Source: Mytilus edulis
Taxonomy: Eukaryota
Length of the DNA stretch: 47,732 bases
Reading direction: 5' to 3'
NCBI RefSeq assembly: GCF_963676685.1
Contig: NC_092353.1
Coordinates: 20,195,575 to 20,243,306 of the forward strand
This document shows positions 2,165 to 21,458 of this stretch, piece after piece (within the stretch, counting starts at the first letter, position 1; every line of letters starts with the position of its first letter). Both the position numbers and the translations under genes were made by a program. The notes beneath the pieces were generated by a model. It had not been told where the DNA came from. It saw nothing but the letters and a program-made list of their open reading frames with translations, and searched no databases.

Positions 2165-2264
2165 TACTGACCCCCTACGGATCCATAGAGGGTTAGTAAA
2201 ATTCATAGGGGGTGATTCCCCTGTGGATTTTACTAACCCTCTATGGATCTGTAGGGGTCAGTAG
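2165..2264. repeat. 100-bp near-perfect palindrome (~48-bp arms, 5-nt loop tgatt)
   Basis: ctactgaccccctacggatccatagagggttagtaaaattcataggggg / cccctgtggattttactaaccctctatggatctgtaggggtcagtag are reverse complements with few mismatches. They share the words tttactaacc and cataggggg with the element terminal repeats. Confidence 0.85.
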
Positions 2265-2380
2265 TTAACCGTATAACGAATTTATCGCAGGCTAGACTTT
2301 TTCTGCTGCGTTTTGTTGAAAAAATAAACAACGAAACACAACAACATTAATAGATGACGTCACCATTAACGCGTCATGAA

Positions 2381-2427
2381 CCCCCTATGAAATTTACTAA
2401 CCCCATACGGTCTCATAGGGGGTCACC
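2381..2427 (+). repeat. Terminal direct repeat copy L of the candidate element; it contains an internal dyad (ccccctatga ... tcataggggg)
   Basis: The 39-nt word tatgaaatttactaaccccatacggtctcatagggggtc is identical at 2386-2424 and 8986-9024. Confidence 0.8.
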
Positions 2428-2480
2428 AGGTATGATGGTCTCCACTGTTTGTGTAGTTTAAATAACCAGTACTATTTGTG

Positions 2481-2617
2481 ATATCAGGAGATTCCGGAGG
2501 AATTGAATATCAGGAGATTGAGGAAGAAATTGAATATCAGGAGATTGAGGAAGAAATTGAATATCAGAAGATTGAGAAGAAATTGAATATCAGAAGATTG
2601 TGGAAGACATTGAGTAT
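2481..2617. repeat. 27-bp tandem repeat x5 (atatcaggagattgaggaagaaattga) that overlaps the 3' end of the gene
   Basis: Direct reading of the sequence. On the minus strand it encodes the repeated peptide LLNLLIFNFF at the protein C-terminus. Confidence 0.85.
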
Positions 2618-3224
2618 CAAACGACACTTGTACAGGCAAACTTTGTGAAGATGTAGAAGCTGAAGTATTCTTGCAAAGAGTGCAAGAACAACCAGGACCA
2701 CAAACATTGCCTTTCCGCCTGCATAAACATCTGTTGTTTACACAGCCTGTTTTACAATTGCATCCTTTTGTTAGAAAAAGGACTGTATGTTCAACTCTAG
2801 AATAATTTTCTGGAGTATCCCATATTATTGACAAGCCATAATCTGGTTTCATTTCCCATCCATAGTGCATAGGATAAAGAAGTGTGACAGATGAATGTAG
2901 GGCTTTGTCCCACATGTCGGATACCCAGCAACCACGCATCCAGTGAAATTTTAATGCTTCAGCTGTAGGCATCATCTCATCTTCATTGATGATGCGATCC
3001 CAGATTTTTTCTCTGATCTTGTCGAGGAAATCTAAATGAGTTTGAAAGCTGTCTTTTTCATTAGATTTTAGAAGAATGAAAAGGTTTTTTGGTGAAGAAA
3101 TGTTTTCAGGAAATGCTGTTCTGTGTTTCAAGAAGTATAGTGTACCAATGAGTCTGTAAAAGGCCAAAAGACCATTGGGAGTATTTTCAGAAATTCTGTA
3201 CCTGTTACAAAATGGCAGTGTTTC
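2484..3224 (-). CDS. Segment 8 (C-terminal): tesmin/TSO1-type CXC cysteine-rich domain (CNCKTGCVNNRCLCRRKGNVCGPGCSCTLCKN, nt ~2673-2765), followed by a Ser/Gln-rich tract and the 27-bp repeat peptide
   Basis: The Cys spacing C-x-C-x3-C-x4-C-x-C-x6-C-x3-C-x-C-x2-C matches the CXC/CRC consensus. A strong acceptor tttttgacaactttag sits at 3225-3240 on the minus strand, and the frame is open from 3224. Confidence 0.45.
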   Translation of the reverse strand, partial: ETLPFCNRYRISENTPNGLLAFYRLIGTLYFLKHRTAFPENISSPKNLFILLKSNEKDSFQTHLDFLDKIREKIWDRIINEDEMMPTAEALKFHWMRGCWVSDMWDKALHSSVTLLYPMHYGWEMKPDYGLSIIWDTPENYSRVEHTVLFLTKGCNCKTGCVNNRCLCRRKGNVCGPGCSCTLCKNTSASTSSQSLPVQVSFDTQCLPQSSDIQFLLNLLIFNFFLNLLIFNFFLNLLIFNSSGIS

Positions 3225-3727
3225 CTAAAGTTGTCAAAAATTATTCTTTTAGTAAATCCTCTGAAGAAAGAGAGATAGTCACAGCCAGATAGAATGAAAA
3301 GAGTTTGTAAGCATTTATGAAGGTGTTGAATATTTTGTAACAAGAGATCAGTGGCTATCTCACAGCTTAATGCGTTCATGTCCAGGAATTTTTTTTCGAA
3401 TTTGCTGTCCTTTAGTTGAATGAAAATAGTTTTATTTTTAAGAGAATCTGCAGACATAATCAGTGGTAAACCAACAAAACAAACATCAGTATCAGGACTA
3501 TAAATCAAAATATTCAAACAAGGAGATGCGGAGGCATGCAACCATACTCTGCTGTCACTTTCTTCATGATTGCCATTAGCCTTTGAATATTCAAATATTT
3601 CTCCTTCTAGAACACAGATGGCCTTGTCCTTGTTGTTACCTTCAAAACCCCCTGCTGTTACAAAAACAAAATCATGTGTCTTTGAAAGTTCTAAAAATTT
3701 AACTGAAAGATACTGTATAAGCTTTCT
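3128..3727 (-). CDS. Segment 7 (…SPDTDVCFVGLP…ILSGCDYLSFFRGF…)
   Basis: The open frame extends upstream of the listed Met to 3727. It shares a frame with segment 6. A GTAAGA donor at 3878 and an AG at 3727/3726 could define a 153-nt intron that joins them in phase. Confidence 0.35.
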   Translation of the reverse strand, partial: RKLIQYLSVKFLELSKTHDFVFVTAGGFEGNNKDKAICVLEGEIFEYSKANGNHEESDSRVWLHASASPCLNILIYSPDTDVCFVGLPLIMSADSLKNKTIFIQLKDSKFEKKFLDMNALSCEIATDLLLQNIQHLHKCLQTLFILSGCDYLSFFRGFTKRIIFDNFRKHCHFVTGTEFLKILPMVFWPFTDSLVHYTS

Positions 3728-3874
3728 TTAGTTTTGTCTGTTGAAAAGAAACTTTTGCCAGTCAGAAGGAAGAGGGGTTGAATCAGAAATAGATATTGAG
3801 TGAAATTTCAATATGATGCTGGTGACCTAGATCTCTGCGTGCACGTTCCACATTTTTTGGGCTAGGACCATTTC

Positions 3875-4516
3875 TTACAGGATCATAAAAAAGAACATGT
3901 ATTTCAGAAGCATTGTACCGTGTATAGAAATTGAGCACCCATCTGTCGAATAAGAAACTGGCATATTGAAGAAAAAAACATGATAACCAAGTGGACGAGA
4001 ATTGATGATGAACATTCCCTCCAAAATAATACCAGTTGTATTAGAATTTGTAAAGGAAAGGCTGTCTGTGTATGAAGAAGAGTATAGAGATTTGAAGAGG
4101 TTTACAACACCAGATTTTTCACCTTTAATTGGTAGTTCATCAGCAGTACATATAGCTCGAGGCAGTTTATTTAATTGATGCAATTCTTCCACAGGCTTTT
4201 CTAATGTTTTTGAATAAGCCAATTGCTTTCTTAAACAGTGAATAACAGTTTTATTGTCTTGTAGTTCCTTTTTTTGTTGTTGGTTGTTTTTTGTAATGAT
4301 TGTAGAAAATATTTTTAGATTTCTTCTTTTTCTAGGAACTTTTTTATTTTTAAGAACTACACAATTGATAAAACTTTTAAAATCCTCCTCTCCATATTTT
4401 CTGTAGTTGAGCATGTCTGATGAAATGTTTGGTGCACATATTTCTCCGGTAAATATCTGGTGTAATTTTGTATTGGTTTCATTTGTAAATAAATACGATG
4501 TGTCTAGACTTTTCAT
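3875..4516 (-). CDS. Segment 6: contains the basic NLS-like stretch KNKKVPRKRRNLK
   Basis: It is in the same frame as segment 5 and separated from it only by a single in-frame TAA (4604-4606). This suggests a nonsense mutation rather than an indel. Confidence 0.4.
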   Translation of the reverse strand: MKSLDTSYLFTNETNTKLHQIFTGEICAPNISSDMLNYRKYGEEDFKSFINCVVLKNKKVPRKRRNLKIFSTIITKNNQQQKKELQDNKTVIHCLRKQLAYSKTLEKPVEELHQLNKLPRAICTADELPIKGEKSGVVNLFKSLYSSSYTDSLSFTNSNTTGIILEGMFIINSRPLGYHVFFFNMPVSYSTDGCSISIHGTMLLKYMFFFMIL

Positions 4517-4603
4517 GTATTCCTGGATGTTTTTCTCATCATTTTGTCTGATAGAAATTTCCCCAATGGTTGAATTTTGATGCTTAATTTTAAGCTGTTT
4601 TTT

Positions 4604-4969
4604 TTAATTTTGTAAGACTTTTGCTCTGAAAGGTAATGATAAGCATGTAGAAGCTAATGACTGTTTTGTGGTTGAATTCAGGGCTTGTTTGGCTGGCAAA
4701 TTAATTTGCATTTCATGTGCTTCACAGTTTAAATCAGTGCCAGTGATGGACACTGCAAATGCCCCTAATGAGAAGAAATCTAAAATAGGTTGGGGAAAGG
4801 TCAACAAGTCTGCTAAATGATAAGGTACAAGTTTAAGATATAGAGGTCTGTCAAAAGCATGAAAGAGAGGACATATCATTTTCAAGGACGCCATTCTTAG
4901 GTTCCAGTTCCTCGATCTAATGTAAATATACAGAGCAAAGTAGGAAAGGAAATCAGTGTGTATAAAGTT
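4604..4969 (-). CDS. Segment 5: continuation of segment 4 once the MITE and one TSD copy are removed in silico
   Basis: Reading ...ETFRFWD(N) through the TSD and straight into NFIHTDFLSYFALYIYIRSRNWNLRMASLKM... gives no stop and the same frame as ORF 4604..4894. Confidence 0.45.
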   Translation of the reverse strand, partial: NFIHTDFLSYFALYIYIRSRNWNLRMASLKMICPLFHAFDRPLYLKLVPYHLADLLTFPQPILDFFSLGAFAVSITGTDLNCEAHEMQINLPAKQALNSTTKQSLASTCLSLPFRAKVLQN

Positions 4970-4980
4970 GTCCCAAAATC

Positions 4981-5361
4981 AATCTAATTAAAAACCGATC
5001 TCTCATCGCTCCTGTTTCTGATATGTCGCGTGGGAGATCTAACGAAACCGGCTTTGAGGTCACATGTGAGTGAACTAAAAGTTATGAATTTATAAAGATA
5101 TGCAAATAAGTTGACGACCTATTAATAAGCCAATCAAAAAAGTTTATGAATTATTTTGACTGACGATTTCGTCGTAAATAAAATGAGTTACATCCCTTTG
5201 CCTAACGTTAAACTTCCAAGATCGTGTAAGACTCAATTTCATTGGTCGAAAAAGACACACCTACGAGGTCACTCACATGTGACCTCAAAGCGGGTTTCGT
5301 TAGATCTCCCACGCGACATATCAGAAACAGGAGCGATGAGAGATCGGTTTTTAATTAGATT
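4981..5361. mobile_element. Nested foldback MITE (381 bp). It has ~92-bp TIRs (AATCTAATTAAAAACCGATCTCTC...GGTCACATGTGAGTGA) around a ~190-bp core, and is flanked by the 11-bp TSD GTCCCAAAATC (4970-4980 and 5362-5372)
   Basis: The arms 4981-5075 and 5266-5361 are reverse complements with a single mismatch. The direct repeat abuts both ends perfectly. The insertion sits inside the element gene ORF. Confidence 0.8.
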
Positions 5362-6231
5362 GTCCCAAAATCTGAAAGTTTCATCGTTTTCTCTCTTTTT
5401 GGAACGCCAGAGTTTGAAATCAGAATCTGAATTAAGATGTGATGTAAATGTTTGTAATAAGGAAAAAAAGGAAGCCTCATCTAAGAACTCATTTTCATTG
5501 AAGGAAGCATTGATGTTTGAAAAAAGAGATAGGAAATCATTATGACCTTCTTGGTACATCTTAAGTTGATGTCTAGAAAGAGCCTCCCAAGCCTGCAACA
5601 AGAAATTATGAACCAGAGTAAATCTTGTACATTCTGTCAAACATTTTAATCTGGAACCAGCATGAAGAAGGTTAGCTATATCTTTTAGACCTGCCTCATA
5701 ATATATCTTCATTAATACAGGTTGGACATTTTTCAATAAATGCCAGTCACCAGGATAAATCAAAAGCCACTTTAATGCATCTCCATGCTCAAATTTTATT
5801 TTCATTAGTGTGTCATAGGATTTTCCATCGCCAACTAATACTACATGTTCAACATGTTTTCCCACTTGCATTTTTGAATGTAATAAATTTAAAACTTTTA
5901 ACACTGTATCTTTGTCATCAGACTTCTCATCTAGCACTGCAACAAAATATGTTTTGGACTTTTCAGGAGAAACACTTTCATTTGATAGAGAGAGAAAGTA
6001 TTTAATACCATGTTTAGACAACTTGTCATCTATAGTTAATGCTGTTTTGAATTGGTTCATACAGTTGAAAGTCAGCATGTCATTTTGGAATGATTCCCAA
6101 GACTTTTTTTCATCTTCTGACATTATAAAGTTATCAAAAGTTAAGTCAGAGTAAATATTTTGTTTAAGGATTGATGGTTTTCCTATATGGTCAAATGGTT
6201 CATATAAGTTCTTTAATAGTTCTGAAGACAT
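5362..6231 (-). CDS. Segment 4: central conserved-looking core (…VAVLDEKSDDKD…VVLVGDGKSYDTLMKIK…LIYPGDWHLLKN…); possibly a catalytic or nuclease domain, but unclassified
   Basis: In the track the ORF runs 5269..6231, but its last 31 codons are encoded by the inserted MITE arm. The host part ends at the TSD (5362-5372). Confidence 0.45.
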
Positions 6232-6243
6232 GTTTCTCTTACT

Positions 6244-6573
6244 TTACCTGATATGTGATGTTTCTGAATACTTTTTGTAGTGAGAATTGTCAAGATTTGG
6301 AATTGTGTCTAATATATCATTTTTAACTGGTGAACTGTCACAGCTTGAAGAAATTGAATTTGTATTTTCACCTTGTTGGATACATTTTGTAGAAATTTCT
6401 GTGTTTGAAGTTGAAATGACACTTGATGAAGTGGGAATTACATTAGAAGAAGTGAAAAATTCACTTGATGTAAGAATTTCACTGGATAAAGTGAGAATTT
6501 CCCTGGAAGAAGTGGACATTTCACTGGTGGAAGAACTATTAAGCAATGTTGTAAGTGGGTCAGTGGTTTCCAA
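6244..6573 (-). CDS. Segment 3: Ser/Thr-rich low-complexity linker with internal peptide repeats (TSSxEILT)
   Basis: 109-aa ORF immediately upstream of segment 4. The antisense ORF 6287..6643 is the mirror image of the same repeat. Confidence 0.3.
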   Translation of the reverse strand: METTDPLTTLLNSSSTSEMSTSSREILTLSSEILTSSEFFTSSNVIPTSSSVISTSNTEISTKCIQQGENTNSISSSCDSSPVKNDILDTIPNLDNSHYKKYSETSHIR

Positions 6574-6779
6574 TATAGAATTTTCAGATGATGAATTTGT
6601 AACAGAATGTAGTAGAGTTTCAGGTAGGGGCTCTACACTCTGAACAGATGTGCCATGAAACCCAGAATTTGATTTACCAGCTTTAACTGAAGAATGAACT
6701 TGGTTTTTATCAATGTTGTCATAAGATCCAATAGCAAATGATTTGAAAGGAGTTGATTCTGTAGTATTGTTTTGCTCGA

Positions 6780-7298
6780 CTACATCAGATAAAAAAAACG
6801 TTTATGTGTATCTTTTGAGACACAAATACCAAATCTAGATAAAATTGCAAGGAAGTCTGTAGAAGAGTTTGAGAATTTGTCTGCAGTGTCAGTTATAAGC
6901 ATATGTAGTGGTTGGGTGCATGCATTGTTTTGAGTATGAAATATAGAACTTAAAATAAATAACCTTTGTAGAAGTCTAGACCTGAAAAAAATGTTCTCTT
7001 CTGGATGTGGTATGAAATGAGTTTTTATTTGAAGTAAATCGATAGGCATGTCTTTTTCCTCTGCTGCTGTTGCTGTTATAAAATACATGTATACAAAATT
7101 CCACAGGACAGGGTCAATTTTTTTAATTTCTGTCACAAAGTCAAACTTTGCTATGTCTTGTTGAATATTGGTTTGTTTTAAAGAGGTGTAATCAGAAACA
7201 CTCTGTTTTAAGTCTGACACTATGTTTTCAATATTTAAATTTTTATTGTGATCCAATTTGGATTCACATTCAGTGTTTTGGTTACTTTTTTTTACCAT
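6780..7298 (-). CDS. Segment 2 of the element gene
   Basis: 172-aa ORF that is co-linear with its neighbours. The gap to segment 1 is compatible with a short intron or a frameshift. Confidence 0.3.
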   Translation of the reverse strand: MVKKSNQNTECESKLDHNKNLNIENIVSDLKQSVSDYTSLKQTNIQQDIAKFDFVTEIKKIDPVLWNFVYMYFITATAAEEKDMPIDLLQIKTHFIPHPEENIFFRSRLLQRLFILSSIFHTQNNACTQPLHMLITDTADKFSNSSTDFLAILSRFGICVSKDTHKRFFYLM

Positions 7299-7534
7299 TT
7301 GTCAGAATAGCATTATAAGCACACTTTGTCATATCCATACCTGTTTTATAAACATTCTTCCAGATTTTCTAGTTTTTTCTGAAGTATATTCAGACATTGT
7401 GTTGCCAAAACTCAGTTTTAACATGTTAAATAACCAGCGTGTGTTGTGAATAAAGATATTTTTGTTTTTGATACCTAATTGGTCTAAATGTAACAAATAG
7501 GTGGAATAAAAAGTTGATAGCATTACAGGTTTAT

Positions 7535-8128
7535 CTACTTTAAACTCATTGTGAACATGAAACATTTTTTTTTTAAACACAACATATCAGCATAACTTTC
7601 ATTACTAATGTCATGTTCAAACTGACTTAGATTATGAAGTTCATTGTCTATAGAATTTGTCACATGGCCTCTTTGTGATACTTGATTAAATTTGTTATAA
7701 CAATACATACACATGACTGGTTTTGTGGAGTTTTTAGATGTTTCATCAAATTCATCCAAAGAAGTGAGAATATTGAATTGTGTATCTGAAATATAAACCT
7801 GTCTGCCAGTAATAGTTTTATCACATGCAATGCAAATATCCTGAAACCTGCTGTCTTTTTTTATCCATTTACAATAGTGTTGATGACATAATGAAATGCT
7901 GAAATTACTGTCTGTAGATGTATCTAAATCTATGTTGAAAATTTTATAGAATAAATTAGTTTCAAAGGTTTTGATTTTTGTGTTGTGTATGCTGCTATTC
8001 CTGTAAGTACAAAAGGGCAAAAAACATGGTAAATCATATGAAACTGAACTTGTATTTAACTTGCGTTTAACTTTGGCAGGTGGACCATCTTCTGGAATCA
8101 TTTGTTGTTGTTGAAATTTTCTTTTCAT
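7535..8128 (-). CDS. Segment 1 (N-terminal) of the element gene: basic NLS-like PAKVKRKL, then Cys/His clusters (CHQHYC...CIAC, CMYC)
   Basis: 197-aa ORF in the six-frame track, first in a co-linear minus-strand series. The C-x4-C-x12-C-x2-C spacing is typical of a zinc finger. Confidence 0.4.
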   Translation of the reverse strand: MKRKFQQQQMIPEDGPPAKVKRKLNTSSVSYDLPCFLPFCTYRNSSIHNTKIKTFETNLFYKIFNIDLDTSTDSNFSISLCHQHYCKWIKKDSRFQDICIACDKTITGRQVYISDTQFNILTSLDEFDETSKNSTKPVMCMYCYNKFNQVSQRGHVTNSIDNELHNLSQFEHDISNESYADMLCLKKKCFMFTMSLK

Positions 8129-8982
8129 TTTTAATTCGCATCTTTTGCAAATGCAGTCCTTCTCTGTAATGTTGTACAGATTACATACAAATGAACAGAA
8201 CTCTGGTAAGGTTTTCTTTTTTTTGTTGGAGGTGAATGTATGTAGAGGAAGGTAATTTGTTAATACAACAAGGGCCAGGTGCTTTCTCTGGATGTACAGA
8301 CGGGCAGTGTGACGATATACCTGGCATAATTACAGTATTTACTTCCAATTTAAGCCAAAAAAGGAAAAAAATCAATATTATATATTGAGTGATGTTAATC
8401 ATGTGAATTGCTGAGTGATTTGAGGTCAAATTAGCCTACACAAATCGTATATAATTTGTTTGTAGTCTACACAGATAATGGCCTCTTACGCTAGGTGAAA
8501 CGGAAGATGACGTCACTTCGGTGGCGACACTAATAATAAATCATAACGGTAAAATGATGGGTTGAATTTTCGGAAATTTGAAAGATAAGTTTCGGGACTT
8601 TAATATCAAGTTAAAGTTATTAAGTGAAGCTTGGATACGCAAACGTCAAATTAGCAGAAATTACTCCAGATCAGAAGGTTGAAAATGTCTGTTTTGTTAC
8701 ATGGTTAGTTGGGAGTCAATTTTGATTCTTTTTTCAAAGAAAATTGACAATTGAATTATTAAAGAAGCATTATCATATATTTGACAAGAAATACACATTT
8801 TTTTCAGGTTCAAGACAAAACATAAAGTTAGTAAATATTAGTTTTCCTAAATCTTTATTTTCCCGGAATATTTTTCTGAAAGTAAACTGCAGCGCCCTCA
8901 AATTACGTCCCCCTGCTATTGTTGCTGATAGAGCTTGACGACAACGGCCGTATCGAAGGACTTGCTTTCCAACTGTATGAAA

Positions 8983-9027
8983 TTTACTAACCCCATACGG
9001 TCTCATAGGGGGTCTCCATGTGACGAC
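8983..9027 (+). repeat. Terminal direct repeat copy R of the candidate element
   Basis: Same 39-nt word as at 2386-2424, in the same orientation and 6.6 kb away. Confidence 0.8.
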
Positions 9028-9840
9028 GTTAAACCAATCACAACTTGATAATTTACCTGCGGTGCGATAATGTTGAAGATTGTTGCAAGATGTCACGTTT
9101 AGTGAAACATGCTTGTTAATCAAATGTTACACAGTCCTGAAATGATATATAGTATCAGTTGCATTGTTCCACCTCATCCCTACAATATTTACTGGGGTGT
9201 CGTTGTCTATACAACCTTCTTTAGTGGCTATTTGACACAACTTCGGACTATCTGATTAACAAGATCTCAGATTAAATCCCCCATACTAGTATACAGAAAG
9301 TTGTCGATTTACGGCAACACGATAGTTAGTCTGGAAAACTAGATAAAATGTTGTCGACGTACAAACCGTTGTATTAAATATGTGTAAAAACTATGATTCA
9401 GGTTAAAAAGTTTCAAAATTAAGGCATGTTAAATGAAGGAAGAGTAAGTGGTACCAAATAGAACTACCTTTAAATGGTTTGTCGAGAGTTGACTTGTAGG
9501 GTCGTTCGGATTCCCGAACCAAACAATCTTGTGGCATCTCTGTCATCCTCATGTTTCTCAACTTGTGAAAAATAATGTCCGCAGTTAATTGTTCTTAGGT
9601 AGTCATTCAGGCTTGGTTAATTGGTATATTAAAAATAAAGTCACAAACTGTTCTGATTGGTGTTGTAGCTGAGTCTTTTTTACGATATGGTGGGTTATAC
9701 TAGTGTACTCTGTGGTTTGCACGTACATTCATTTTCATCAACTTTTTCTTGATCGACGATTATATAGATATAAGAAGATGTGGTATGAGTGCCTTTGAAA
9801 CAACTCTTCATCCAAGTCACAGTTTATAAAAGTTAATTAA

Positions 9841-10481
9841 GGGCATACGATACAGTTACAGGGGAGGTAATGACGTTGCTAACGTAAAATGTTATTTTCG
9901 CGACGTCAAACTGTGACCTATCGGGAAAAGATGCATTTTTCGACTGATTTTTATCATTCAAACTGATTTAATTTGAAAACGATTGCATGGACCTTTTTTT
10001 AAAACGACATTTTGTTTCATTTTCCAGGGAAATTATGTGGACCAAATTTTATAAAACTGTAAATAGTGCATTTTTTTTAATTTTGATAAATGTACAGCAA
10101 AAAATGACTTTTTTTTCTCAATTCATGACCATTTGATAACTATGAGTAATTTCTGAATAAAAAATTCAGAAATTTTTAGAAGACTTAATACATATACAAA
10201 GATTACAAATTATTTAACAAAAAACAATTTGTGTTTATCTTTTAAAACAAACAAATTATGTCTTTCTTTCGAAAGGAAAAATACGGCCACAACTCCGCAT
10301 TTTGAGCAAATATACAAAATTTCGACCTCATTTAACTCAGAAAGTAGCACATGGAGGTATATATTTTTTTTATTACATATTTGATTTAATCAGGAAAAAA
10401 TAGCCTATATGGAAATTTTCATCAAACTGTAAATACAGGATCAAAACTGTATCGTATGCCCTTAACACGGAGCCTTGGCTC
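9841..10481. mobile_element. MITE of 641 bp with perfect 17-bp TIRs (GGGCATACGATACAGTT / AACTGTATCGTATGCCC), flanked by TTAA on both sides (9837-9840 and 10482-10485)
   Basis: Direct reading of the sequence. The interior is AT-rich and non-coding. A TTAA duplication is typical of piggyBac-like elements, and of some PIF-like ones. Confidence 0.7.
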
Positions 10482-10723
10482 ACACTGAACAGCAAGCTAT
10501 AAAGGGCCCCTAAAATGACTAGCGTAAACCCACTCAAACGGAAAAACCAACGCTCTAATCTAAATGAAAATCGAGAACCGCCAATTTAATTAGGTCTGTG
10601 ATTTTGTTTCTGAAGTAGAATATGTGGCAAAGTGATATATATGGTAGAAAAATCAACGACTTATTGACACTCTTAATCCTCTTGCAGCCGACCGTTTTTC
10701 AAGGTTGCATTTCATATTGAACA

Positions 10724-10860
10724 GATATATCATGTTAAGGAGGGGTATTTGCGAAAAATACCAGTCGAGAGAATGTTAAATTTCACGAGCCGTAAGGCGA
10801 GGGAAATTCATTCTCAAGACTGGTATTTTTCGCAAATACCCCTCAATAACATGATATATC
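10724..10860. repeat. Hairpin or foldback: ~52-bp inverted arms with a ~33-bp loop
   Basis: gatatatcatgttaaggaggggtatttgcgaaaaataccagtcgagagaatg is the near reverse complement of cattctcaagactggtatttttcgcaaatacccctcaataacatgatatatc. The related word ggcaaatacc recurs at 10935-10995. Confidence 0.6.
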
Positions 10861-11984
10861 TGTTTAATTACACCGAATGTTAATGTACTAAAACGCATTG
10901 ATGATCGTTACAAGCGTCCAGTCGGATAGAGTATTTTTTGGCAAATACCACGGCAGAGAGGGTAAAAAAGGCATATCCTTTTAGCAAATACCCCGGCGGC
11001 GTTAAAAATGAACGATTTTCATTTGATAACAGTAAATTGGTGAAAAATACACTGGCTATTAACCAATCAAAACCCCGGATTCTTACATAAGGTGTAATTA
11101 GACGTAAAATACGACAGCTCGACGTCTGTGACGTAAATGCTAAACAACGACGTCACGACATAATGACCGTTACATTTGGGACCCATTGAAGTAAAACATA
11201 ATGATGTTTAATCCTCGGTCTTTTAATTGAAAGAATAACAGCACTGATGAGAAGCTTGCATAAATTTAACCATGGACATATGTGTCCCTCCGGCAGCAAG
11301 AGGGTAAAGAAACTAATGTGGATATTTTCAAAGGCCTTATTTGAACATTTTATAATCAGGTTTTTGAATTCCGCCATAGCATCATCAGTTCATCACAGAA
11401 TATAAGATAACTTGGTATAACTATGTAATCGAAATTAATGGACTTAGCAGTGTGTTAACACTGTCAACTATTGATAGGATAAAACAACAATTTTAAACAT
11501 GAAAGTACAAGTTAGTGCTTATTTTGTTACAGGTACGAAAATTTAGTGATATTTTGACTATAACATTAAATAAAGGCATCGCCGGGTAGTATACCGCTGT
11601 TCGAAAGTCATAAATCGACTGATAAAAAATATCTGGGCTACAAACTAACACTGAGGTAAACACATCAACTATAAGAGGAAAACAACGAAACAACAGAAAC
11701 ACTGAGGTGCAACAAAAAAACAAACGATAATGCAACACACACAGAGAAACAAACTATGATATATAACATCTACAATTTGCCTGACTTGGTACAGGACATT
11801 CTAAGACAAACTGGTGTGTTGAACCTAGTTTTGCGGCTAGCCAAACCTTGCATTTTTATTTCAATGTTAATATAACACTAATATGACAACATTACATGAC
11901 AGGACTCAAAACAAACAAATGCAAGAACATTCTGGACAGAAAAATACACAGATATACAATACAATAGGACATTTCCAATAGTAA

Positions 11985-12083
11985 AGGTACATGTACCAGG
12001 CTTATAATTTAATATACCATACGCGCGTTTCAGATCCAGATTTGATAAAGAAAGACAAACAAGTACAAAGTTGAAGAGCATTG
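11985..12083 (-). repeat. Inverted copy of the hammerhead-bearing repeat unit, with the ribozyme core deleted
   Basis: On the minus strand it reads caatgctcttcaactttgtacttgtttgtc...tctgaaacgcgcgtatggtatattaaattataagcctggtaca. This aligns to the 30608-30745 unit, but the word agcgtcactgatgagtcttatgtagac is missing. Confidence 0.5.
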
Positions 12084-13114
12084 ATGTTACCCTGTATACC
12101 ACATTGCCTCACATTCTCATTAAGAAAAAATTCACACACCTAATTAAATGGGCATTCAAAAAATCAGAATGTGAATATATATGTTCAAACTCTGTTAGGT
12201 CATTTTTTAGTAGCAATAAAAAAAACTATGTTAATTGGACATGCTTTGATACTATATATGCCCTTGAATTTTTACTAGATAACATTTTTGTTCGCTTTGG
12301 GGATTCCGTATATCGTCAGATTATCGGAATTCCAATGGGGACTAACTGTGCACCACTTATTGCGGACCTGTTTTTGTATTGTTATGAGTTACAATTTATG
12401 ACAATAATAAGCAAACACCCATCGAAACAACATCTGATAAACAAATTTAATAATACTTTTAGATATTTGGATGATATTTTGGCTATCAATAATGACGACT
12501 TCAGTATGTATATTAATGCAATTTATCCTGTTGAACTTACTTTAAATAAAGCTAATACTAACAATGACCACTGCCCTTTTCTCGATCTTTATATCTATAT
12601 CACTAATGGAAAGCTGAATACTAAAATTTCTGATAAAAGGGATGATTTTTCATTTCCTATCGTTAATTATCCGTTTTTAGATGGTGACGTTCCCTTGTCA
12701 CCATCTTACGGTGTTTATATATCTCAACTTGTACGATTCGCTCGTGTATGTAATAATGTTTGAGATTTTAACGAGAGAAATTTATGTATTACTGAAAAAT
12801 TATTACACCAGGGTTTTCGATATCACAAACTAGTCAAAACATTTACTAAATTTTATCATCGGTATAAAGACATCATTCGTAAATATAGCTCAACATGCAG
12901 ACTTCTAATACGTTCAGGTATTTCACATCCAATTTTTTATGGAAATATTCTTTATAAAGCACAACGGTGTCAGTATTCACCTCAGAAACTTACAAAACCT
13001 TTGAATAGACTTCTTAAGAAGGGATATAATTACGATACTGTTGTCAAGTCATTAAAGATTGCATATTTTGGCGTTAATATTGAGTCACTGATAAGGTCTT
13101 TGCATCGGAACTAA
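12071..13114 (+). pseudogene. 5'-truncated reverse transcriptase fragment: RT motif B (GIPMGTNCAPLIADLFL) and motif C (YLDDIL), then a thumb-like C-terminal region. One in-frame TGA at 12761-12763
   Basis: ORF 12071..12763 continues in the same frame after the single TGA down to the TAA at 13112-13114, giving ~347 codons. The N-terminus, including motif A, is absent. The ORF starts exactly at the junction word gttgaagagcattg. Confidence 0.7.
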
Positions 13115-13392
13115 ACACATTTATTCTAAAAACAGTTGTTGGCATGATACGGGTTATGTTCTTCTCATATATGTTATGATACTAAACCCCTAACGGGAAG
13201 GATTGTGTCAACATATTCATATGTTGAAATCATAATCTTTCAGTCAGTTTAATTGAAGTCTGGAGCTGGCATGTCAGTTAACTGCTAGTAGTCTGTTGTT
13301 ATTTATGTATTATTGTCATTTTGTTTATTTTCATTGGTTACATATTCTGACATCAGACTCGGACTTCTCTTGAACTGAATTTTAATGTGCGT

Positions 13393-13740
13393 ATTGTTAT
13401 GCGTTTACTTTTCTACATTGGTTAGAGGTATAGGGGGAGGGTTGAGATCTCACAAACATGTTTAACCCCGCCGCATTTTTGCGCCTGTCCCAAGTCAGGA
13501 GCCTCTGGCCTTTGTTAGTCTTGTATTATTTTGATTTTAGTTTCTTTTGTACAATTTGGAAATTAGTATGGCGTTCATTATCACTGGACTAGTATATATT
13601 TGTGTAGGGGCCAGCTGAAGGACGCCTCCGGGTGCGGGAATTTCTCGCTACATTGAAGACCTGTTGGTGACCCTCTGCTGTTGTTTTTTTATTTGGTCGG
13701 GTTGTTGTCTCTTTGACACATTCCCCATTTCAATTCTCAA
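13393..13740 (+). mobile_element. tRNA-derived SINE-like element, copy 1
   Basis: A D-arm or A-box-like word ATTGGTTAGAGG and a B-box-like word GGGTTGAGATCTC near the 5' end. It is ~75 percent identical over ~330 bp to 31494-31830. The shared tail is ...cattccccatttc(a/c)attctcaat. Confidence 0.5.
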
Positions 13741-14019
13741 TTTTATGTCCCAAATTCCAAAAAAAAAGAAATGTGCCAAATATGGCTAAGGTTGTATATA
13801 TTTGGGATAAGAAAACCCTTAGTAAATAGAATAATTCGTACTTTTGAAAAAGCAAATGTGAAACAAATGACCATAAAGTTGATTTTCATGTCAACACCGA
13901 AGTCGTGTCTAACAAAAGAATAATAAACTGTTATCACAGAGATATGTCTCGCCTTTTTGTAATTTTGATAATGCAAATGTTGAAATTAGAATAGCAATAC
14001 TTTAACATGTAAGTTATGC

Positions 14020-14400
14020 AAATATTCAAAGTCGATGAACCATGACTGAATGAACATTGACTGAAAGTACATGGCCAAACAATCTCCATGGAATGAGATA
14101 TGCCAATGCTTATACAACTGCATACCAAATACCATTGACTCATTATAAGTTGTTCCCTTTAAACAAACCTAAACACAAACATTAACTTGTTTACGTAAAC
14201 TATGTAAAAGTTTAAAGTCAATGAACCATGATCAGGGATGGGGTTATATAATCTCCATGGAAACGATACTTTCAAATGTCAATACATTTGTATACCAAAT
14301 ATCATTGATTTAACATTAGCAGTTCCTCTTTAACTGATCTAATCACAAACTAATACATGTAAACTTAGCAAAACTGTTTTTTCCCTTTATCGGAACACTC
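14020..14400. repeat. ~190-bp tandem repeat x2 (…atctccatgga(a)…ataccaaata(t/c)cattga…)
   Basis: Two adjacent, similar units. The related sequence is at 16555-16800. Confidence 0.6.
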
Positions 14401-14574
14401 AAATAAAAAGAAAACTGATGTGAGCATTTAAGGACAGGGATTTGTACAAGTCGTTCTATACAAAATCTTGTTAATGTATAAGTGTCTGAACATGTGTAAT
14501 TGCATGTACACAGTTAGTTTTTGCAATTGGGCTGTGCAGAAAATATGAGCTTTTACGTCAAACTGTCGGGATGT

Positions 14575-15060
14575 GTTTAAAAATCTATATCCTATGTAAT
14601 TATATTTGACGACTCTACTAAATAAACTCACCATAGAAACCAGGATTGACATTTTCGTCTAAAAAAAGTCTCATCAGTGACGCTCGAATCCAAAAAAGTT
14701 AAAAAAAAAAATCAAAAAAAAATCCAAATATTGTACGAAGTTGAAGAGCATTTAGACCAAAATTCCAAAAAGTGTTGCCAAACACAGCAAAGGTAATCTA
14801 TTCCTAAGGTAGAAAAGCCTTAGAATTTCAAAAATTCAAAAGTTTTGTAAACAGTTAATTTATAAATATAACCATATCAATGATAATCTATGTCAGCACA
14901 AAAGTGCTGACCACTGGGCTGGTGGTACCCTCGAGGAAATAAATCTCCACCAGCAGTGGCATCGACCAAGGAGTTGTAAATAAACTCACCATAGAAACAG
15001 GTTTATATTTACGGCAGACACACGTTCATCTCAAAAACACTCATGAGGTTGGTAATGGGG
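14575..15060 (-). repeat. Degenerate inverted copies of the hammerhead-bearing repeat unit
   Basis: The minus strand reads gagcgtcactgatgagac...gaaaatgtcaatcctggtttctatggtgag at 14640-14700. A second copy, with its core mutated to cucaugag, lies at ~14977-15055. The junction word gttgaagagcatt occurs at 14744-14757. Confidence 0.4.
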
Positions 15061-15299
15061 GTACCGAATTTGTAATCACATAAGCAACACGACAGGTGCC
15101 AAATGTGGAGCAGGATCTGCTTACCCTTCCGGAGCACCTGAGATAACCCATAGATTTTGGTGGGTGTCGTGTTGTTTATTCCTTAGTTTTCTATGGTGTT
15201 TCATGTGTACTATTGTTTGTCTGTTTGTCTTTTTCATTTTTAGCCATGGCATTGTCAGATTATTTTAGATTTATGAGTTTGACTGTTCCTCTGGTATCT

Positions 15300-15580
15300 T
15301 TCGTCCCTCTTTCGTGACGAATCACGGTAAAAATTCTTGCCAAATGACGTTAACGGTAATTTTTTATGCATGACGATAAAATGTACACTTTCTTTTAGAC
15401 GATACGAAAATTGACTGATTTTGACGAATCAGGTAAAAATGTTCCCCGAAAATGACGGTAACGATAATTATTTGAGACCTCTGACAAATCACGGTAAAAA
15501 TTTAACCAATTTGACGCTAACGGTAGCTGAAAATTACCGTTTGACGCCTGACGGTAAACAAGTAAAGGGCATTACTAATT
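15300..15580. repeat. Minisatellite, ~58-bp unit x4-5 (tgacgaatcacggtaaaaat...gacgttaacggtaatt)
   Basis: Direct reading of the sequence. The ORF 15421..15630 is a translation artefact of this periodicity. Confidence 0.7.
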
Positions 15581-15779
15581 TACTACCCTCACTCGTCAAG
15601 TTGAAGAGCATTGGGGACCAAAATTCCTAAAAGTTTTGCAAACTACAGCTGAAGTAATCTATTTCTGAGGTAGCAAAACTTATTATTACTTAGTAATATT
15701 GTGTAAACTTCGTGTGCAAACGATTAACATGATAAAGTGAAGTGAACATGACTAACTTTTATCAAAACACGTTTCTTCA

Positions 15780-16210
15780 AACCAGAATTGCTTATCTGCC
15801 AAGTTAGGATGCAATAAGGGCATGCAGGATCCATACAATGAAGTCATGGTCAGATGAATCTTGTGGTGAAGGAAAATCGAGAAAAAGGTCGGATGAACAC
15901 TGCAAAACGGACTTGTAACCTTAATGCTCGTTCCATAGTCCAAATATATTTCATATACTGATTATAATATGTGAAAACACCTATTTCTGAAAACTTGATG
16001 TTGACTAATAAATCAGGACTAGGTCAGGTTGAACCTTGTGAGATTGACAAATATACCATACAAATATTACAAACATCAAATATAGTTGACAATATGCTTA
16101 TATTATCTGAAAAATAGACCTAACAAGAAAACACTACATTACAATGAACAGAACTATGAAAATGAGGCCTAGGTCAAGTTTACTCTGCAAGACTTCAATA
16201 ATTCCATATT
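15780..16210. repeat. Dispersed copies of the ~150-bp (a)aatgaggtcaaggtca family
   Basis: Examples are aaaatgaggcctaggtcaag at 16162 and caggactaggtcaggttgaacc at 16010. They share the words accaaatatagttgac and tatggtataagaaaa with the 22262-22736 array. Confidence 0.45.
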
Positions 16211-16554
16211 CCAAATACACGATACTGGATGCTGAAGTTGTGTATCTTTTTATCAACTGTACAGTTTTCCCTTTATTGATGTTTGTTTTATCATTTTGCT
16301 TTGTTTTTGCAGGTAGGTGTAGAGTTGTGATTAGGACCCAAGAGGTTTTTTACAATTTATGTTTTGCTTTGTTTACCCTCGTATTTAAATTTTACTTAAT
16401 CTGTACATTATCACCAAAGTGTATAGGTTATACTGTATGAACTATAACAAATAACGAATGTACTATTTAATACAAATTCTTTTTTGTTGGTATTTTTGTT
16501 TGAATTTTGAAGTCAGTTGTGTTGTCTGTAACTTGTAGTTACAAAACATATTAC

Positions 16555-16800
16555 AAACCAATCTTCATAGAAATAAGTTTAGCCAATGCTAATACCAAAT
16601 ATCATTGACCTACCACTAGAGGTTCCACATAAACTGACCTTATCAAAAACAAAAACATGTTAACTAAGCAAAAGTTTCAAAGTAAATAGGCATTGACTGA
16701 GCTAGAAATCTTCATGGAAATGAGGTGTGCCAATATTTATATAACTTCATACCAAAAATCACTGACCTACCACTAGTAGTTACCCATAAATTAGCCTAAT
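16555..16800. repeat. Two ~120-bp units related to the 14020-14400 repeat
   Basis: The shared words are gccaatgctaataccaaatatcattgacctaccact and cttcatggaaatgag. Confidence 0.5.
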
Positions 16801-17639
16801 TACAAAGTAATACATTGTTGACATCCACTGATATGATGGAAACAGCATACCAATGTCTCAGATTTCAACAATTTTTTTAAATTGATTTGGATTACCTCCC
16901 TTACACTGCTTTTAAATTGTCTCAATTGTCTTTTTACCAGAAAAACCTTTGTTTCCCCCTTTTTGCCCCTAATTTAAAAATGGTTAGAGCCATAACCCCC
17001 AAAGTCAGTTGTTGTGAAAGTACAATTTACACGACGTAACGTTATATTTATTCCCGTACTTTCACTTTCCCATTGTTGACGTCAACTTCCGCCCAGCAAT
17101 TGTATATATGGTTTTGAAGAGTGTTGTACACGTGGAAGAATAAGAAGACTGGAATTTAACTTGTTACATATTTTATAAAAGGTAAACAGCATACATTTTA
17201 CACACTATAGTATTTTACTAATCTCCGCATCAGGTTCTAAATATATACTTTGCCCTATTTATAGATTGTAGTTTCCCCTGTTAAATATAGCGCGATCGGC
17301 AATTCAAACACATTAGCGTTGGTTGTTCATTTGTTATTATTTATTCGCGTATTCCTGTGTGAATAAACTGTGTTGTATATTTATTGTGTATTATAATAAA
17401 GTATTGTATTTCCACATGTTGTTTGCATAAAAACGTAACTGCCGTATAAAGTTGTGGTAATTGTTTAATGAGATAAATACTTGTTGTGAAGCCCATGTAT
17501 GATTTTACCCGCTCGGACGTTTGTTCTATAAATAAGTAAGTTCATAAGCAGGTTCCTGACCATCCCTTTGTAGTATGAAAACTTGTAGTAAAATTTCTGA
17601 GAGATTCATACAATTCAACAAAAGTTAATGTTTAGAAAC

Positions 17640-17895
17640 TACAAAAATGCTTATTTGGGCTTTTTTTAAAGACCCTAATTCCAAACCCATAACCCCCCCC
17701 AACATCAATCCCAACCTTCCTTTAGGGGTTATAAACCTTGTGTTAAAATTTTATTGATTTCTTTTTACTTTTTATAAAATTATTATTCAGAAACAATCCA
17801 TCTTCAGACGACACTGATGATAAAGACTACGACAACAACAAAGTGATAGCAAGATACAACAAATTTTTTTAAAATTTTTGCGGTTATATAAACAT
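17640..17895 (+). repeat. Solo tail fragment of a composite satellite-carrier element: one cccaa..atcaatcccaaccttcc unit plus the (GAC)n/hairpin tail
   Basis: The tail gacgacactgatgataaagactacgacaacaacaaagtgatagcaagatacaac...tttttgcggttatataaa parallels the tails at 24466-24545, 26281-26362 and 42491-42560. Confidence 0.5.
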
Positions 17896-18689
17896 GAGAC
17901 CAAGAAAAAATCAGCTAAAAGTTAACAGGGATGGAAATTAAAGATAACAATTTTATCCTTTTCACTCCTCTATATTTATTGAACTCTACCATGTTAACTG
18001 GAAAGCAATTTCAAGAAGGCTGCTAAAGTTTGATTCCACTTTACCAAATACAGTAATTTAGATATCACCCTTAACTTCACACTGTAATACATAAACATAT
18101 ACCACAAAATACTGGTGTTTTTTCATATTAAAGTTGTTATAATGTACCTGAAATAAAATTTTTATTTTCATCTTGTTTTGAATATTTGAATAAATGTGTA
18201 TTTTAAGTGTATGATGTCCTGGATTTGAAATGAAATATTTCAAACATGTATTTCAAATGTCTTAAGAAAATAATAGGAAATAAATTAACAAAGATTTTAT
18301 ACAAATATGGCATGATTTATTGATTGTCGTATCCATAATGACCTGTGGTAAATATTTCCTACATATCCAGGACACAAACATATTCAATAATTAACAAAAG
18401 TATGTTATTTTGATGGTCACTGGTAAATCCTGATTAGGGATAGGGACTGTTTTTTAAAACTTGCAACAAGCCATACACTGATCTCTATTGCAGTAAGAGG
18501 TTTTGCATACACTGAAGAATAAACTTTTCTCAATTTTATATACATTCCTGACAGCTAACAATGTTTCTATAGTTATCCATGAAGTCACAAATATAGTACA
18601 AATTCATTAAACTGTACAAATAATTGGTAAATACATACAAAAAATAAATAAAAATTACAAAATGTAAACAAATATATCACAGACTTTAA

Positions 18690-18835
18690 AATAAATTAAT
18701 AAAAAATTATATATAAACACAATATCATAAATAATTAAACAAATATATATAAACACTATAATATAAATAATTAAACAATTATATATAAACACAATATCAT
18801 AAATAATTAAACAATTTTATATAAACATTGTACTA
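18690..18835. repeat. AT-rich ~42-bp tandem repeat x3-4 (atatataaacacaatatcataaataattaaacaa)
   Basis: Direct reading of the sequence. Confidence 0.7.
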
Positions 18836-19794
18836 TAAATGAAAAAAACTTTTTATAGTACTATGAACATTCCAAAACAATAATATTCAAAAGATTTTTC
18901 AGAAATGTCCACTTTTAATTCATCAAAACAATCCACATAATTTACGTTGGTCTTCATGAAAAAATAACCCAACAATCAAATATTGAATTTTGTGCAGCCT
19001 ACTGCACACATTTATAAATCACAAATTCCTGCAGAAAATAAGTAATTTTGCCATTTTCAGAACTAGAATTAATTTTTTTATTCTTTCTTTAATAAATTCC
19101 AATATTCAAATTTCATTACCAAAATTATGATTATTGAAGGGAGCAAAATCTTTAAAACCTTCTAAGACTTTTCAATCAGTCGCATTAAGGCAAAATTAAA
19201 TTAAATTAAGTAAAAAAAAATGTGAAATTTTATTTCTCAATATATTCTTATATATTATTTGCTATTTTGAAATGATAACAATAAATCATTAATTGACGGA
19301 GACCTTTTTTTTTAATCAATATTATTATTTTTTGTTTTTATTTTGAGTTGAAAAATAGTAAAATTGAAAAATTATATCATGTTTGTTTGACCAATATCTG
19401 CAACATATCTTTCATTTTGATCATTACATATAAGTGTATTCTACAGATATATACAACAACAGCAGTGTTTTACTACTTCTTTGGACAATATCACCTGAAC
19501 TAATTATCACATTCTTTTTATCATCAAATTGTAAATAGATAAAGAAAAACAAATGTGTAGCCTCATGTAAAACAAAGAATCAATCTCATTATAATAAATA
19601 ATCTGTTAAATGATATTAAAGTTGTATAACTGATCCCTGATCATAGATGATATGATGAAAATTAATCTTTTGTTCACAAACTCAACTTATCGCAATTACA
19701 ATTATAATGCCTAATAAGATAAAGACAATGAAGGTACAATTCTATACTATTGCATCAATTTTTATTTTGTTTTGCATAACCATGTCAAGTTAGT

Positions 19795-19985
19795 GACAAA
19801 AATCCAGTATCAAAGATGTTACAAGGCAACACCAAAGATCTTGGCTGCTACCTCACCCTAGAAGAGAGACATTATAAGTTGACACCTATAATCATGGCTG
19901 CTACCTCACTCCACGAGTGACATTACTGTGCAACACCTAACATCTTGGCTGCTACCTCACCCCATGAGTGACCTAATTCCAGCAT
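19795..19985. repeat. ~60-bp tandem repeat x3 (catcttggctgctacctcac(c/t)cc..gagtgaca)
   Basis: Direct reading of the sequence. It overlaps the 3' end of the minus-strand ORF 19923..20228. Confidence 0.6.
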
Positions 19986-21002
19986 ACTTGATGTCAATTT
20001 ATGCTCTTCCTCTTTCTGCTGATAGAAATTGACAGTTTTTATCATTCGACTATGCTTAGGAAAATGTTCATCATCAACTTGTTGCCTACCACCCTCTGTA
20101 CTTTCTGACAGCCATCTTGTCAGCTCTTTTTGCCAAAAGTTATTGCCTTTAACATGACTGGGAACCCAGTCTGGAGACTCCAATTGTATAACAACCAGCA
20201 AGGCAATACAGGTTGCCAGTAAAGTCATAATCTCATCCTGTACTTTTAATGCTGAAATAGAATATTGTACTTCGCTTGAAATTAAATAGTTACAATAAGT
20301 GTCAGCCCTCCAAGATGCTTAATTTCCATTTATTCTATGTTTTGTATACTGTTCTTTGTCTGTTTTTCCTTTTAATCATGGCATTGTAATTTTATTTTTC
20401 AACTTTTGAGTTTAAATGTTTCTTTGGTATATTTTGCCTCTCTTCTTCAACCTGCTGCATGATTTTTGTTTTGGTGACAGTTGTGCTTTAATAATTCTAA
20501 GCAAGTCCATGACAAATACTTATAGTCAAGATTTTTGATTAGTTAGCCATTTAATCATATTCATTGGCATTTTATAGCTGCAAACTTTAATCAAAGTTTA
20601 AAAATCAACTCCTGATTCTGCTAAATGGAGATAACATGAAACATATATAATATTAGGGTACAAACAAAAAATTGAACCTTTTCCTTAAGTTAATGTAAAA
20701 ACTGAATTTTCATGGAGTTTAAATTTCGTTTATTTGTGATGATACTGATCAGAAAATATCGATGAAATTAAAACTCCCATGAAAATTTAACCTTCATAAA
20801 ATATCACTTCCATTTAATGGAAACCATGAAATTAAATCCCCATGAAATCTTACATAGAGAAAAAACCACGAAAATTTGATCTCATGAAAATTAATGTTTC
20901 TAAAGTAAATGAAACTTGATATTCAAAACATGCCAATATTGAACTAAAACCTACTTAACAGGTTTTATCTGTTTGAAATAATGTTCCCAAGTTAATACTT
21001 AA

Positions 21003-21343: not shown

Positions 21344-21458
21344 GCATTAGTACAGTGTAACCTGTCTTATCTGACACCAGAGTATTCTGACACTCTGCTT
21401 AATCCAACATTTTTTTCTGGTCCTTTAGTGTGTAGGATTACACAGGTTACACTGTAAT
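21344..21458. mobile_element. Miniature foldback element (115 bp) with perfect 15-bp TIRs tacagtgtaacctgt / acaggttacactgta
   Basis: Direct reading of the sequence. The CAGTG TIR start resembles hAT-type ends, but no matching TSD was found. Confidence 0.5.

Follow-up and report, generated by a model that had tools for sequence, protein, structure and literature searches.

The stretch of DNA analyzed here (the window) comprises 47,732 nucleotides of the Mytilus edulis genome (contig NC_092353.1 of assembly GCF_963676685.1, forward-strand positions 20,195,575 to 20,243,306). Near its left end lie the remains of one large minus-strand gene within what is very probably a dead, 3′-truncated copy of an autonomous DNA transposon of the AcademX type, from the Academ superfamily; we put the probability of this reading at about 90%. 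A first-pass annotation, made from the letters of the window, had instead proposed an undescribed transposon-like element bounded by 39-nt direct repeats. The copy and its parts are as follows.

2426 to 8975, minus strand: 3′-truncated, degenerate copy of a Mytilus transposon, probably of the AcademX type, equivalent to positions 1 to ~6134 of the full-length element at locus L005
8959 to 8975, minus strand: 5′ terminal inverted repeat (TIR), reading CAGTTGGAAAGCAAGTC on the minus strand; the true element end
2426 to 8327, minus strand: remains of a single large gene, matching residues 1-1755 of P0083, an M. edulis homologue of 1822 residues
4700 to 6729, minus strand: Academ-type DDE transposase domain with D, D, GxxH and E motifs, assigned with phmmer and hhalign
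6723 to 6709 and 5841 to 5815, minus strand: catalytic motifs holding the first Asp (D1, in DNID) and the second Asp (D2, in VLVGDGKSY)
5754 to 5740 and ~4723 to 4709, minus strand: catalytic motifs GxxH (in PGDWH) and E (in EAHEM)
4981 to 5361, strand not assigned: nested miniature inverted-repeat transposable element (MITE) of 381 bp, with 132-nt inverted arms that are 86% complementary; it splits the transposase domain
3275 to 4033, minus strand: predicted 5′-nuclease domain of FEN1/XPG/EXO1 fold (PIN-like), with the acidic motifs ILEGM, HVLFxD, HEESDSR, SPDTDV and SGCDY
2667 to 2765, minus strand: CXC-type Cys-rich, zinc-finger-like domain, GCNCKTGCVNNRCLCRRKGNVCGPGCSCTLCKN, corresponding to the "Cys8 zinc finger" of AcademX

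The mobility of this element and the position of its ends emerge from comparison with other copies. Seven loci were fetched (L001 to L007, with L006 overlapping L003), and these provide six copies besides the one in the window. At least seven copies thus occupy unrelated loci in M. edulis and Mytilus galloprovincialis, where they share 95-99% identity with the window copy or among themselves and are embedded in unrelated flanks. The central part (598 residues) of the conceptual translation, used as a protein query, recovered several M. edulis proteins from different contigs at 98% identity, a M. galloprovincialis protein at 93%, and relatives in Mytilus coruscus and further marine assemblies at 31-47%; Ptychodera, Branchiostoma and a soft coral yielded further relatives when the C-terminal 524 residues served as the query. 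A second copy elsewhere had been named by the first-pass annotation as the observation that would decide between a mobile element and a host gene, and the comparison of copies did settle that question. Together with the domains described below, it confirms a DNA-transposon copy that carries a multidomain gene of ~1,800 residues.

BLASTN alignments of the window with L001, L003, L004 and L005 (95-98% identity) all end at 2426 on one side and at 8975-8977 on the other. At the right end, the window copy, L001, L003 and L004 have the sequence in common through GACTTGCTTTCCAACTG (...CCAACTG) and then pass into unrelated flanks, and L005 starts with the same 5′ terminus, which is therefore common to five copies. 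At the left end, L001, L002, L003 and L005 run beyond the equivalent of position 2426 into sequence without a counterpart in the window, namely the last 67 codons of the gene followed by several kilobases of non-coding DNA; the 261-bp and 1.7-kb left extensions of other copies were sought in the window and are not present there. Because the other copies continue at this point with the last 67 codons, the window copy must be truncated inside its own coding sequence. It keeps the 5′ 6.5 kb and lacks those 67 codons and a non-coding tail of ~9 kb.

Both ends of the element are visible at L005, where it spans positions 9356-24673 (15,318 bp). The 17-mer CAGTTGGAAAGCAAGTC at its 5′ end recurs in inverted form, as GACCTGCTTTCCAACTG, 15.3 kb away at the other end with 16 of 17 positions matching. 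An additional subterminal inverted match is present, and TAA lies on both sides of the element as a 3-bp target site duplication (TSD). The L003/L006 copy has at least 14.8 kb in common with this element. Since homology between the window and the other copies stops at 2426 and 8975, and the true ends are seen in L005, the 39-nt repeats are flanking DNA and not termini.

This bears directly on the proposal of an undescribed superfamily of DNA transposons whose termini would be dyad-bearing 39-nt direct repeats. The repeat is indeed exact, non-random and tightly placed around the gene, and the window's own sequence yields no Pfam transposase match. Nevertheless, six copies have the same interior and no such repeats, alignments with them stop at 2426 and 8975, the left limit lies within coding sequence (codon 1755 of 1822), the ends seen in L005 are 17-bp TIRs with a 3-bp TSD, and the transposase is that of Academ. 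We consider the proposal highly improbable. The same verdict applies to a single-copy or domesticated host gene, of the tesmin/TSO1-like CXC kind, that happens to be flanked by repeats. That view would agree with the name under which homologues are deposited at NCBI and UniProt, "Tesmin/TSO1-like CXC domain-containing protein". However, the gene occurs in multiple copies at unrelated loci with different flanks, it lies within TIRs and a TSD, every copy is degenerate, and the CXC match falls below the Pfam threshold and covers just 35 of ~1,800 residues.

The decay of the window copy can be read against P0083. A TBLASTN search of the window with this protein gave nine high-scoring segment pairs in alternating frames, with at least seven frame switches. 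The first-pass annotation was right about a co-linear minus-strand gene in many open reading frame (ORF) pieces, and it also noted several features that we find again in the translation: VAVLDEKSDDKD, VLVGDGKSYD, PGDWH, a CXC-like Cys cluster and a basic N-terminal stretch. Its gene limits need correction. The start is at 8327, not 8128, and the end it placed at 2484 reflects a tail read in a shifted frame, the coding sequence being cut at 2426. Its view that several segments are separated only by point stops holds in part: three nonsense codons relative to P0083 are point mutations (6246-6244, 4606-4604 and ~3730-3728), but there are also at least seven frameshifts, several of them in homopolymer runs (A10, T8), and the 381-bp MITE. 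Small introns, which had been suggested to join the segments, are not borne out, as the GT...AG candidates are too short and alignment to P0083 reveals nonsense point mutations and frameshifts in their place. Four codons (VALD) have been deleted directly before the catalytic E.

The nested MITE is bounded by an 11-bp TSD, GTCCCAAAATC, at 4970-4980 and 5362-5372, and its site is empty in L001, L003, L004 and L005. Its long TIRs and a TSD in the 9-11-bp range suggest a Mutator-like or AcademH-derived non-autonomous element. The coding tail also holds a 27-bp tandem repeat (2481-2619, 5.2 copies) that encodes the nine-residue unit SSDIQFLPQ/SPDIQFLPQ; the corresponding array in L005 is shorter, with 3.2 copies versus 5.2 in the window.

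Assignment to a superfamily rests chiefly on the transposase domain. AcademX elements were described as combining a DDE transposase with an XPG nuclease and a Cys-rich (Cys8) finger, with a 3-bp TSD in animals and termini that carry a 5′ pyrimidine and a 3′ purine; the first and second catalytic Asp residues of Academ were reported 138-192 residues apart (Kojima 2020, PMC7165386). As a reference set we used 13 transposase domains typed from Data S3 of that study. With phmmer, the window domain matched Academ-1_SP at 44.9 bits (E 1e-13) and five further animal AcademX families at 20-36 bits, while 260 shuffled sequences reached at most 3.8 bits. With hhalign, the profile of the Mytilus family matched animal AcademX at a probability of 99.7% (E 2e-26, 298 columns), red-alga AcademX at 95.8%, and AcademH at 85% (E 6e-6, 97 columns). 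In the alignment DNID...FHGT, VGDGKSY, PGDWH and LDEAHEM line up with the D, D, GxxH and E columns of the published domains, and the interval between D1 and D2 holds a Ser/Thr-rich insertion. A coral protein recovered by the C-terminal query, P0078, provides a further bridge: it is a canonical AcademX protein (215 bits to Academ-1_SP), and its alignment with P0083 is collinear across 993 columns (E 1e-28).

The domain set, the motifs, the TIRs, the TSD and the absence of a helicase together place the family in the AcademX lineage. Like Academ-1_SP, Academ-4_BF and Academ-1_NV, the Mytilus element resides in an animal (bivalve) host, lacks a helicase gene and unites a DDE transposase, an XPG/FEN-type nuclease and a Cys-rich finger in a single large protein. 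Also as in these families, the first Asp lies in a DNxD...FHGT motif, GxxH comes after the second Asp, and the last motif is D(x)3E; the TSD measures 3 bp, and the TIRs are short, with a pyrimidine as their first and a purine as their last nucleotide. An undescribed element type, as first envisaged, is thus not what is found, because the transposase is homologous to that of published AcademX elements and the combination of a nuclease with a Cys-rich finger is a published architecture. There are differences as well. D1 and D2 are 297 residues apart in the Mytilus protein versus 138-192, and its second-Asp motif, VGDGKSY/PGDWH rather than FDQxxY/LGxFH, looks nearer to AcademH and the red-alga forms. 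Relatives of the Mytilus protein pass the Pfam DUF6589 model, whereas canonical AcademX sequences do not. With AcademH and DUF6589 proteins the transposase fold and catalytic motifs are homologous, but the Mytilus element has no helicase ORF, carries a nuclease and a CXC domain, and has a TSD of 3 bp versus 9-10 bp.

The Pfam model itself merits comment. DUF6589 (PF20231) has a gathering cut-off of 27 bits, which the distant relatives P0003, P0004 and P0008 exceed with 48-54 bits. Published AcademH transposases score 95-198 bits on this model (183-198 bits in AcademH matches), and DUF6589 can therefore be annotated as the Academ transposase domain.

KDZ (Kyakuja-Dileera-Zisupton) elements or other CxC-bearing transposases had been named by the first-pass annotation as the nearest guess. 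KDZ transposases are large DDE proteins with Cys-rich accessory domains, and the Mytilus protein likewise combines a large DDE-like core with Cys-rich clusters at either end. Unlike KDZ proteins, however, the Mytilus proteins do not match the KDZ model (PF18758) or the CxC1-6 models of Pfam, either for the window pieces at E≤1 or for P0083 at E≤0.1, and the strong profile-profile matches are to Academ. A KDZ affiliation therefore has, in our estimate, a negligible chance of being correct. More generally, Pfam searches with the ORF pieces of the window and with the conceptual protein returned no transposase, XPG or KDZ match, and only a sub-threshold match to TCR.

The region behind the transposase is predicted to be a 5′-nuclease of FEN/XPG fold. 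A sequence-only profile search of the PDB gave just weak matches (EXO1 at E 0.14, the LIN54 CXC at E 0.008), which made structure prediction necessary for recognizing the nuclease. In the AlphaFold2 model of P0021, a protein 92% identical, the predicted local distance difference test score of this region is mostly 85-97, and a Foldseek search of the PDB with the same region placed XRN1, EXO1, FEN1, Rat1 and T5 D15 structures in all of the top 31 positions (best E 4.6e-6). The family alignment (A1) contains invariant D/E columns here. Relative to FEN1, XPG, EXO1 and XRN1, the predicted fold and the positions of acidic residues are alike; sequence identity, however, is only ~10-15%, the Pfam XPG_N and XPG_I models do not match, and the Mytilus domain is fused behind a transposase.

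At the C terminus, the first-pass annotation had recognized a tesmin/TSO1-type CXC domain. The Cys cluster is present, and its spacing, CxCx3-4Cx4CxCx6Cx3CxCx2C, is similar to that of the tesmin/TSO1 (LIN54) CXC domain (PF03638), but its matches to the profile are weak: the best Pfam TCR score is 20.5 bits (E 6e-4; 16-20.5 bits across queries) against a cut-off of 23.5, and a bona fide CXC domain is not supported. LIN54 and tesmin carry a tandem CXC pair, whereas the Mytilus protein has a single sub-cut-off domain and is otherwise unrelated. This nine-Cys CXC-like cluster is kept across the family and also ends the canonical AcademX protein P0078.

Several observations weigh against the AcademX assignment or limit it. 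L005 is the only copy that shows both ends, the 3′ boundaries of L001 and L003 being obscured by variant or nested tails, so the TIRs and 3-bp TSD are a single instance. A fully open reading frame is present in no copy examined; in the best of them, L005, one frameshift or intron separates ORFs of 372 and 1580 aa. Part of its 15.3 kb may consist of nested insertions. The D1-D2 spacing of 297 residues (in P0083) is beyond the range reported for Academ, and DUF6589 is matched neither by the conceptual protein of the window (E≤1) nor by P0083 (E≤0.1). On the spacing, it can be said that it results from the Ser/Thr-rich insertion, that this insertion sits at the existing Academ insertion domain, and that 138-192 is a reported range, not a formal criterion.

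The TSD is also unreadable in L001, L003 and L006, and the window copy gives none because its 3′ end is missing. The last ~480 bp of the element, which would provide a second full-length end, were sought in L006 and not found. L001 and L003 appear to end at ...GCATTGAAA, where a TIR and TSD were sought and none was seen; we rejected this boundary as a terminus, as it is the point at which tail variants diverge. The variants split at element position ~8130 (L005 ~17485, L001 17219, L007 16298, L003 23846), beyond which L005 and L003 have one continuation and L001 and L007 another (GGAGTTTGACAACG...). This pattern points to a nested insertion or to two subfamilies. L006 also holds a segment (7114-7206) that resembles the final 90 bp at the 3′ end of the element, with 75% similarity. 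This segment precedes the 5′ end of the L003/L006 copy by ~410 bp, has the same orientation as that copy, and may be what is left of a related neighboring element.

Apart from the transposase gene, the 15.3-kb element at L005 contains no ORF of 100 aa or more, and hence no helicase ORF. Its tail instead carries tandem arrays of 122-bp and 147-bp repeats (16206-17098 and 21571-22183) that are 78-84% similar to arrays in the window at 34713-35475 and 22168-22730, which have periods of 120 and 148 bp. Because the tail arrays resemble satellite arrays elsewhere in the window, the element family carries, and may disperse, satellite DNA. Academ elements are reported to be strongly expanded in bivalves, where 100 curated consensus elements average ~5.6 kb (PMC10294476), versus ~15.3 kb for the Mytilus element with its 9-kb tail and its 122-bp and 147-bp satellite arrays.

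We propose that an intact member of the family would be ~15.3 kb long, with 17-bp TIRs (5′-CAGTTGGAAAGCAAGTC...) and 3-bp TSDs, and would encode one protein of ~1,820-1,930 residues. The order within the protein would be N-terminal Cys/His clusters, an Academ DDE domain with a Ser/Thr-rich insertion between D1 and D2, a 5′-nuclease of predicted FEN1/XPG fold and a CXC-type finger, and the gene would be followed by a ~9-kb non-coding tail with satellite arrays. To judge from family membership, the DDE transposase would bind the TIRs, excise the element and integrate it with a 3-bp stagger. The copy in the window keeps its true 5′ end but is broken at codon 1755, and it has since acquired frameshifts, nonsense mutations, a four-codon deletion at the catalytic E and the MITE.

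The 39-nt repeats that first drew attention to the locus require a separate explanation. They and the related flanking features are located as follows.

2386 to 2424, plus strand: left 39-nt copy; flanking DNA that adjoins the internal break point of the truncated transposon copy, identical to 8976-9014
8976 to 9014, plus strand: right 39-nt copy; flanking DNA directly after the 5′ TIR
2380 to 2423, plus strand: hairpin-forming target unit, with an 11-bp stem (2380-2390 and 2413-2423) and a 22-nt loop
2151 to 2277, strand not assigned: imperfect palindrome of 127 nt, made of two inverted copies of a related ~45-nt unit; flank, not element

The window contains two exact copies, and no more, of the word TATGAAATTTACTAACCCCATACGGTCTCATAGGGGGTC (39 nt), which form a direct repeat, and shuffled sequences lead one to expect none; the pair can be extended to 46 nt at 96% identity. 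The first-pass annotation gave the orientation and the left position correctly, and placed the right copy at 8986-9024, 10 nt away from its actual position. It had also seen an internal dyad in each copy. Such a dyad exists at the left copy as an 11-bp stem, of which the left arm lies partly outside the 39-nt word, by 6 nt, and the unit folds as DNA with -9.3 kcal/mol (z -2.6); the right copy has no significant dyad (z -0.29). The perfect 100-bp palindrome described to the left of the repeat is present in imperfect form: the two arms (2172-2211 and 2218-2257) show 93% complementarity, which drops to ~83% over the full span. As single-stranded DNA it would form a strong hairpin (-48.4 kcal/mol, z -14.6), and it perhaps represents a small local repeat of foldback or MITE-like type.

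The hairpin unit at 2380-2423 is related to the units that make up this palindrome. In all, the ~45-nt unit has four copies (2168-2213 on the minus strand; 2213-2257, 2377-2425 and 8967-9021 on the plus strand), and no further copies were detected elsewhere in the window or in ~170 kb of other Mytilus loci. The 39-nt word does not occur beside the six other element copies, whose flanks are unrelated, and a search for long flank duplications at L001, L002, L003, L004 and L007 found none. The 39-nt direct repeats are probably a one-off duplication of flanking DNA, and they are not a property of the element family.

This duplication likely arose from an aberrant insertion or repair event. At the right junction an intact TIR is followed by TAT, the first 3 nt of the right 39-nt copy, at the position expected for a TSD. 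At the left junction, one mismatch followed by a microhomology of 3 nt (CCA) marks the passage from the flank to an internal position of the element. Reconstruction of the target gives one hairpin unit, divided inside its left stem. Our preferred account is that the TIR end underwent single-ended strand transfer into the hairpin-forming local repeat, and that host microhomology-mediated repair then joined the broken internal end 39 nt away, which would leave a long, non-canonical "TSD". Alternatively, a normal insertion may later have lost its 3′ ~8.8 kb and gained filler DNA for which the opposite flank served as template.

It is also conceivable that no duplication took place, and that the element landed between two pre-existing, neighboring copies of the hairpin repeat and was later truncated. 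The local abundance of related units, four within 300 bp of flank and two of them forming the palindrome, speaks for this possibility. However, the two copies that flank the element are identical at 39 of 39 positions versus 71-83% for the other units, the boundaries of the two repeats fall precisely at the junctions with the element, and the right copy lacks the left stem arm of the left copy, as expected of one split unit. We therefore regard pre-existing units as unlikely. An assembly artifact, in which a haplotype or graph join duplicated a k-mer-sized overlap around a heterozygous insertion, would account for an exact 39-nt repeat of k-mer-like length, and the frameshifts in homopolymer runs (A10, T8) hint at sequencing or assembly errors. 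Yet a mismatch followed by microhomology at the left junction looks biological, and the region contains no other apparent mis-join, which makes an artifact very unlikely.

The locus thus provides no new class of element; it is an ordinary dead copy of a known superfamily, and this Mytilus family may already be catalogued in Repbase or Dfam. What it adds is a large AcademX family that looks recently active, with copies up to 99% identical and one that is near-intact, in a superfamily expanded in bivalves. A bolder interpretation is that the family represents a distinct deep branch of Academ, that the 39-nt duplication records single-ended integration of an Academ end into hairpin DNA, or both, and to this we give little credence. 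The case for a deep branch may be built on the co-occurrence of AcademX domains and a 3-bp TSD with a second-Asp region like that of DUF6589 and AcademH, the 297-residue spacing and a 15-kb body that bears, and would spread, satellite arrays. The duplication will be of note only if it recurs at other truncated copies. If single-ended integration is true, it would be a first glimpse of how transposition intermediates are handled by Academ transposases or by the fused FEN-like nuclease, for which a role in processing such intermediates has been speculated (Kojima 2020, PMC7165386).

A more immediate consequence concerns annotation. Several Mytilus database proteins that are named "Tesmin/TSO1-like CXC" or are uncharacterized are fragments of the Academ transposase-nuclease. 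Some gene models extend further: those at L003 10001-18536 (P0002) and L004 10001-16501 (P0011) join pieces of the transposon to host-like exons for ankyrin repeats and IIGP/IRG GTPases. Such fused models, and those with the "Tesmin/TSO1-like" name, are probably annotation chimeras or misnomers.

The remainder of the window is rich in repeats. Most of the interval from 22282 to 47000 is taken up by satellite-like arrays, tandem repeats whose periods range from 126 to 169 bp (32318-33138, 40002-41244 and 44037-44807 are examples), and the only long non-repeat ORF of this interval (37907-38818, minus strand) encodes a Ser/Pro/Gln-rich product without a Pfam match. Another ORF, of 230 residues (12071-12763, plus strand), contains the motif FRYLDDILA, which resembles the YxDD box of reverse transcriptases, and it may for this reason be a retroelement fragment, although it had no Pfam match at E≤0.01. 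In all, Pfam searches with four window ORFs outside the transposon gene gave no match. Closer to the transposon copy, an inverted repeat with 60-nt arms (10716-10775 and 10809-10868, 92% complementary, 33 nt apart), which has related short repeats at 10936-10994, looks like another MITE or hairpin repeat.

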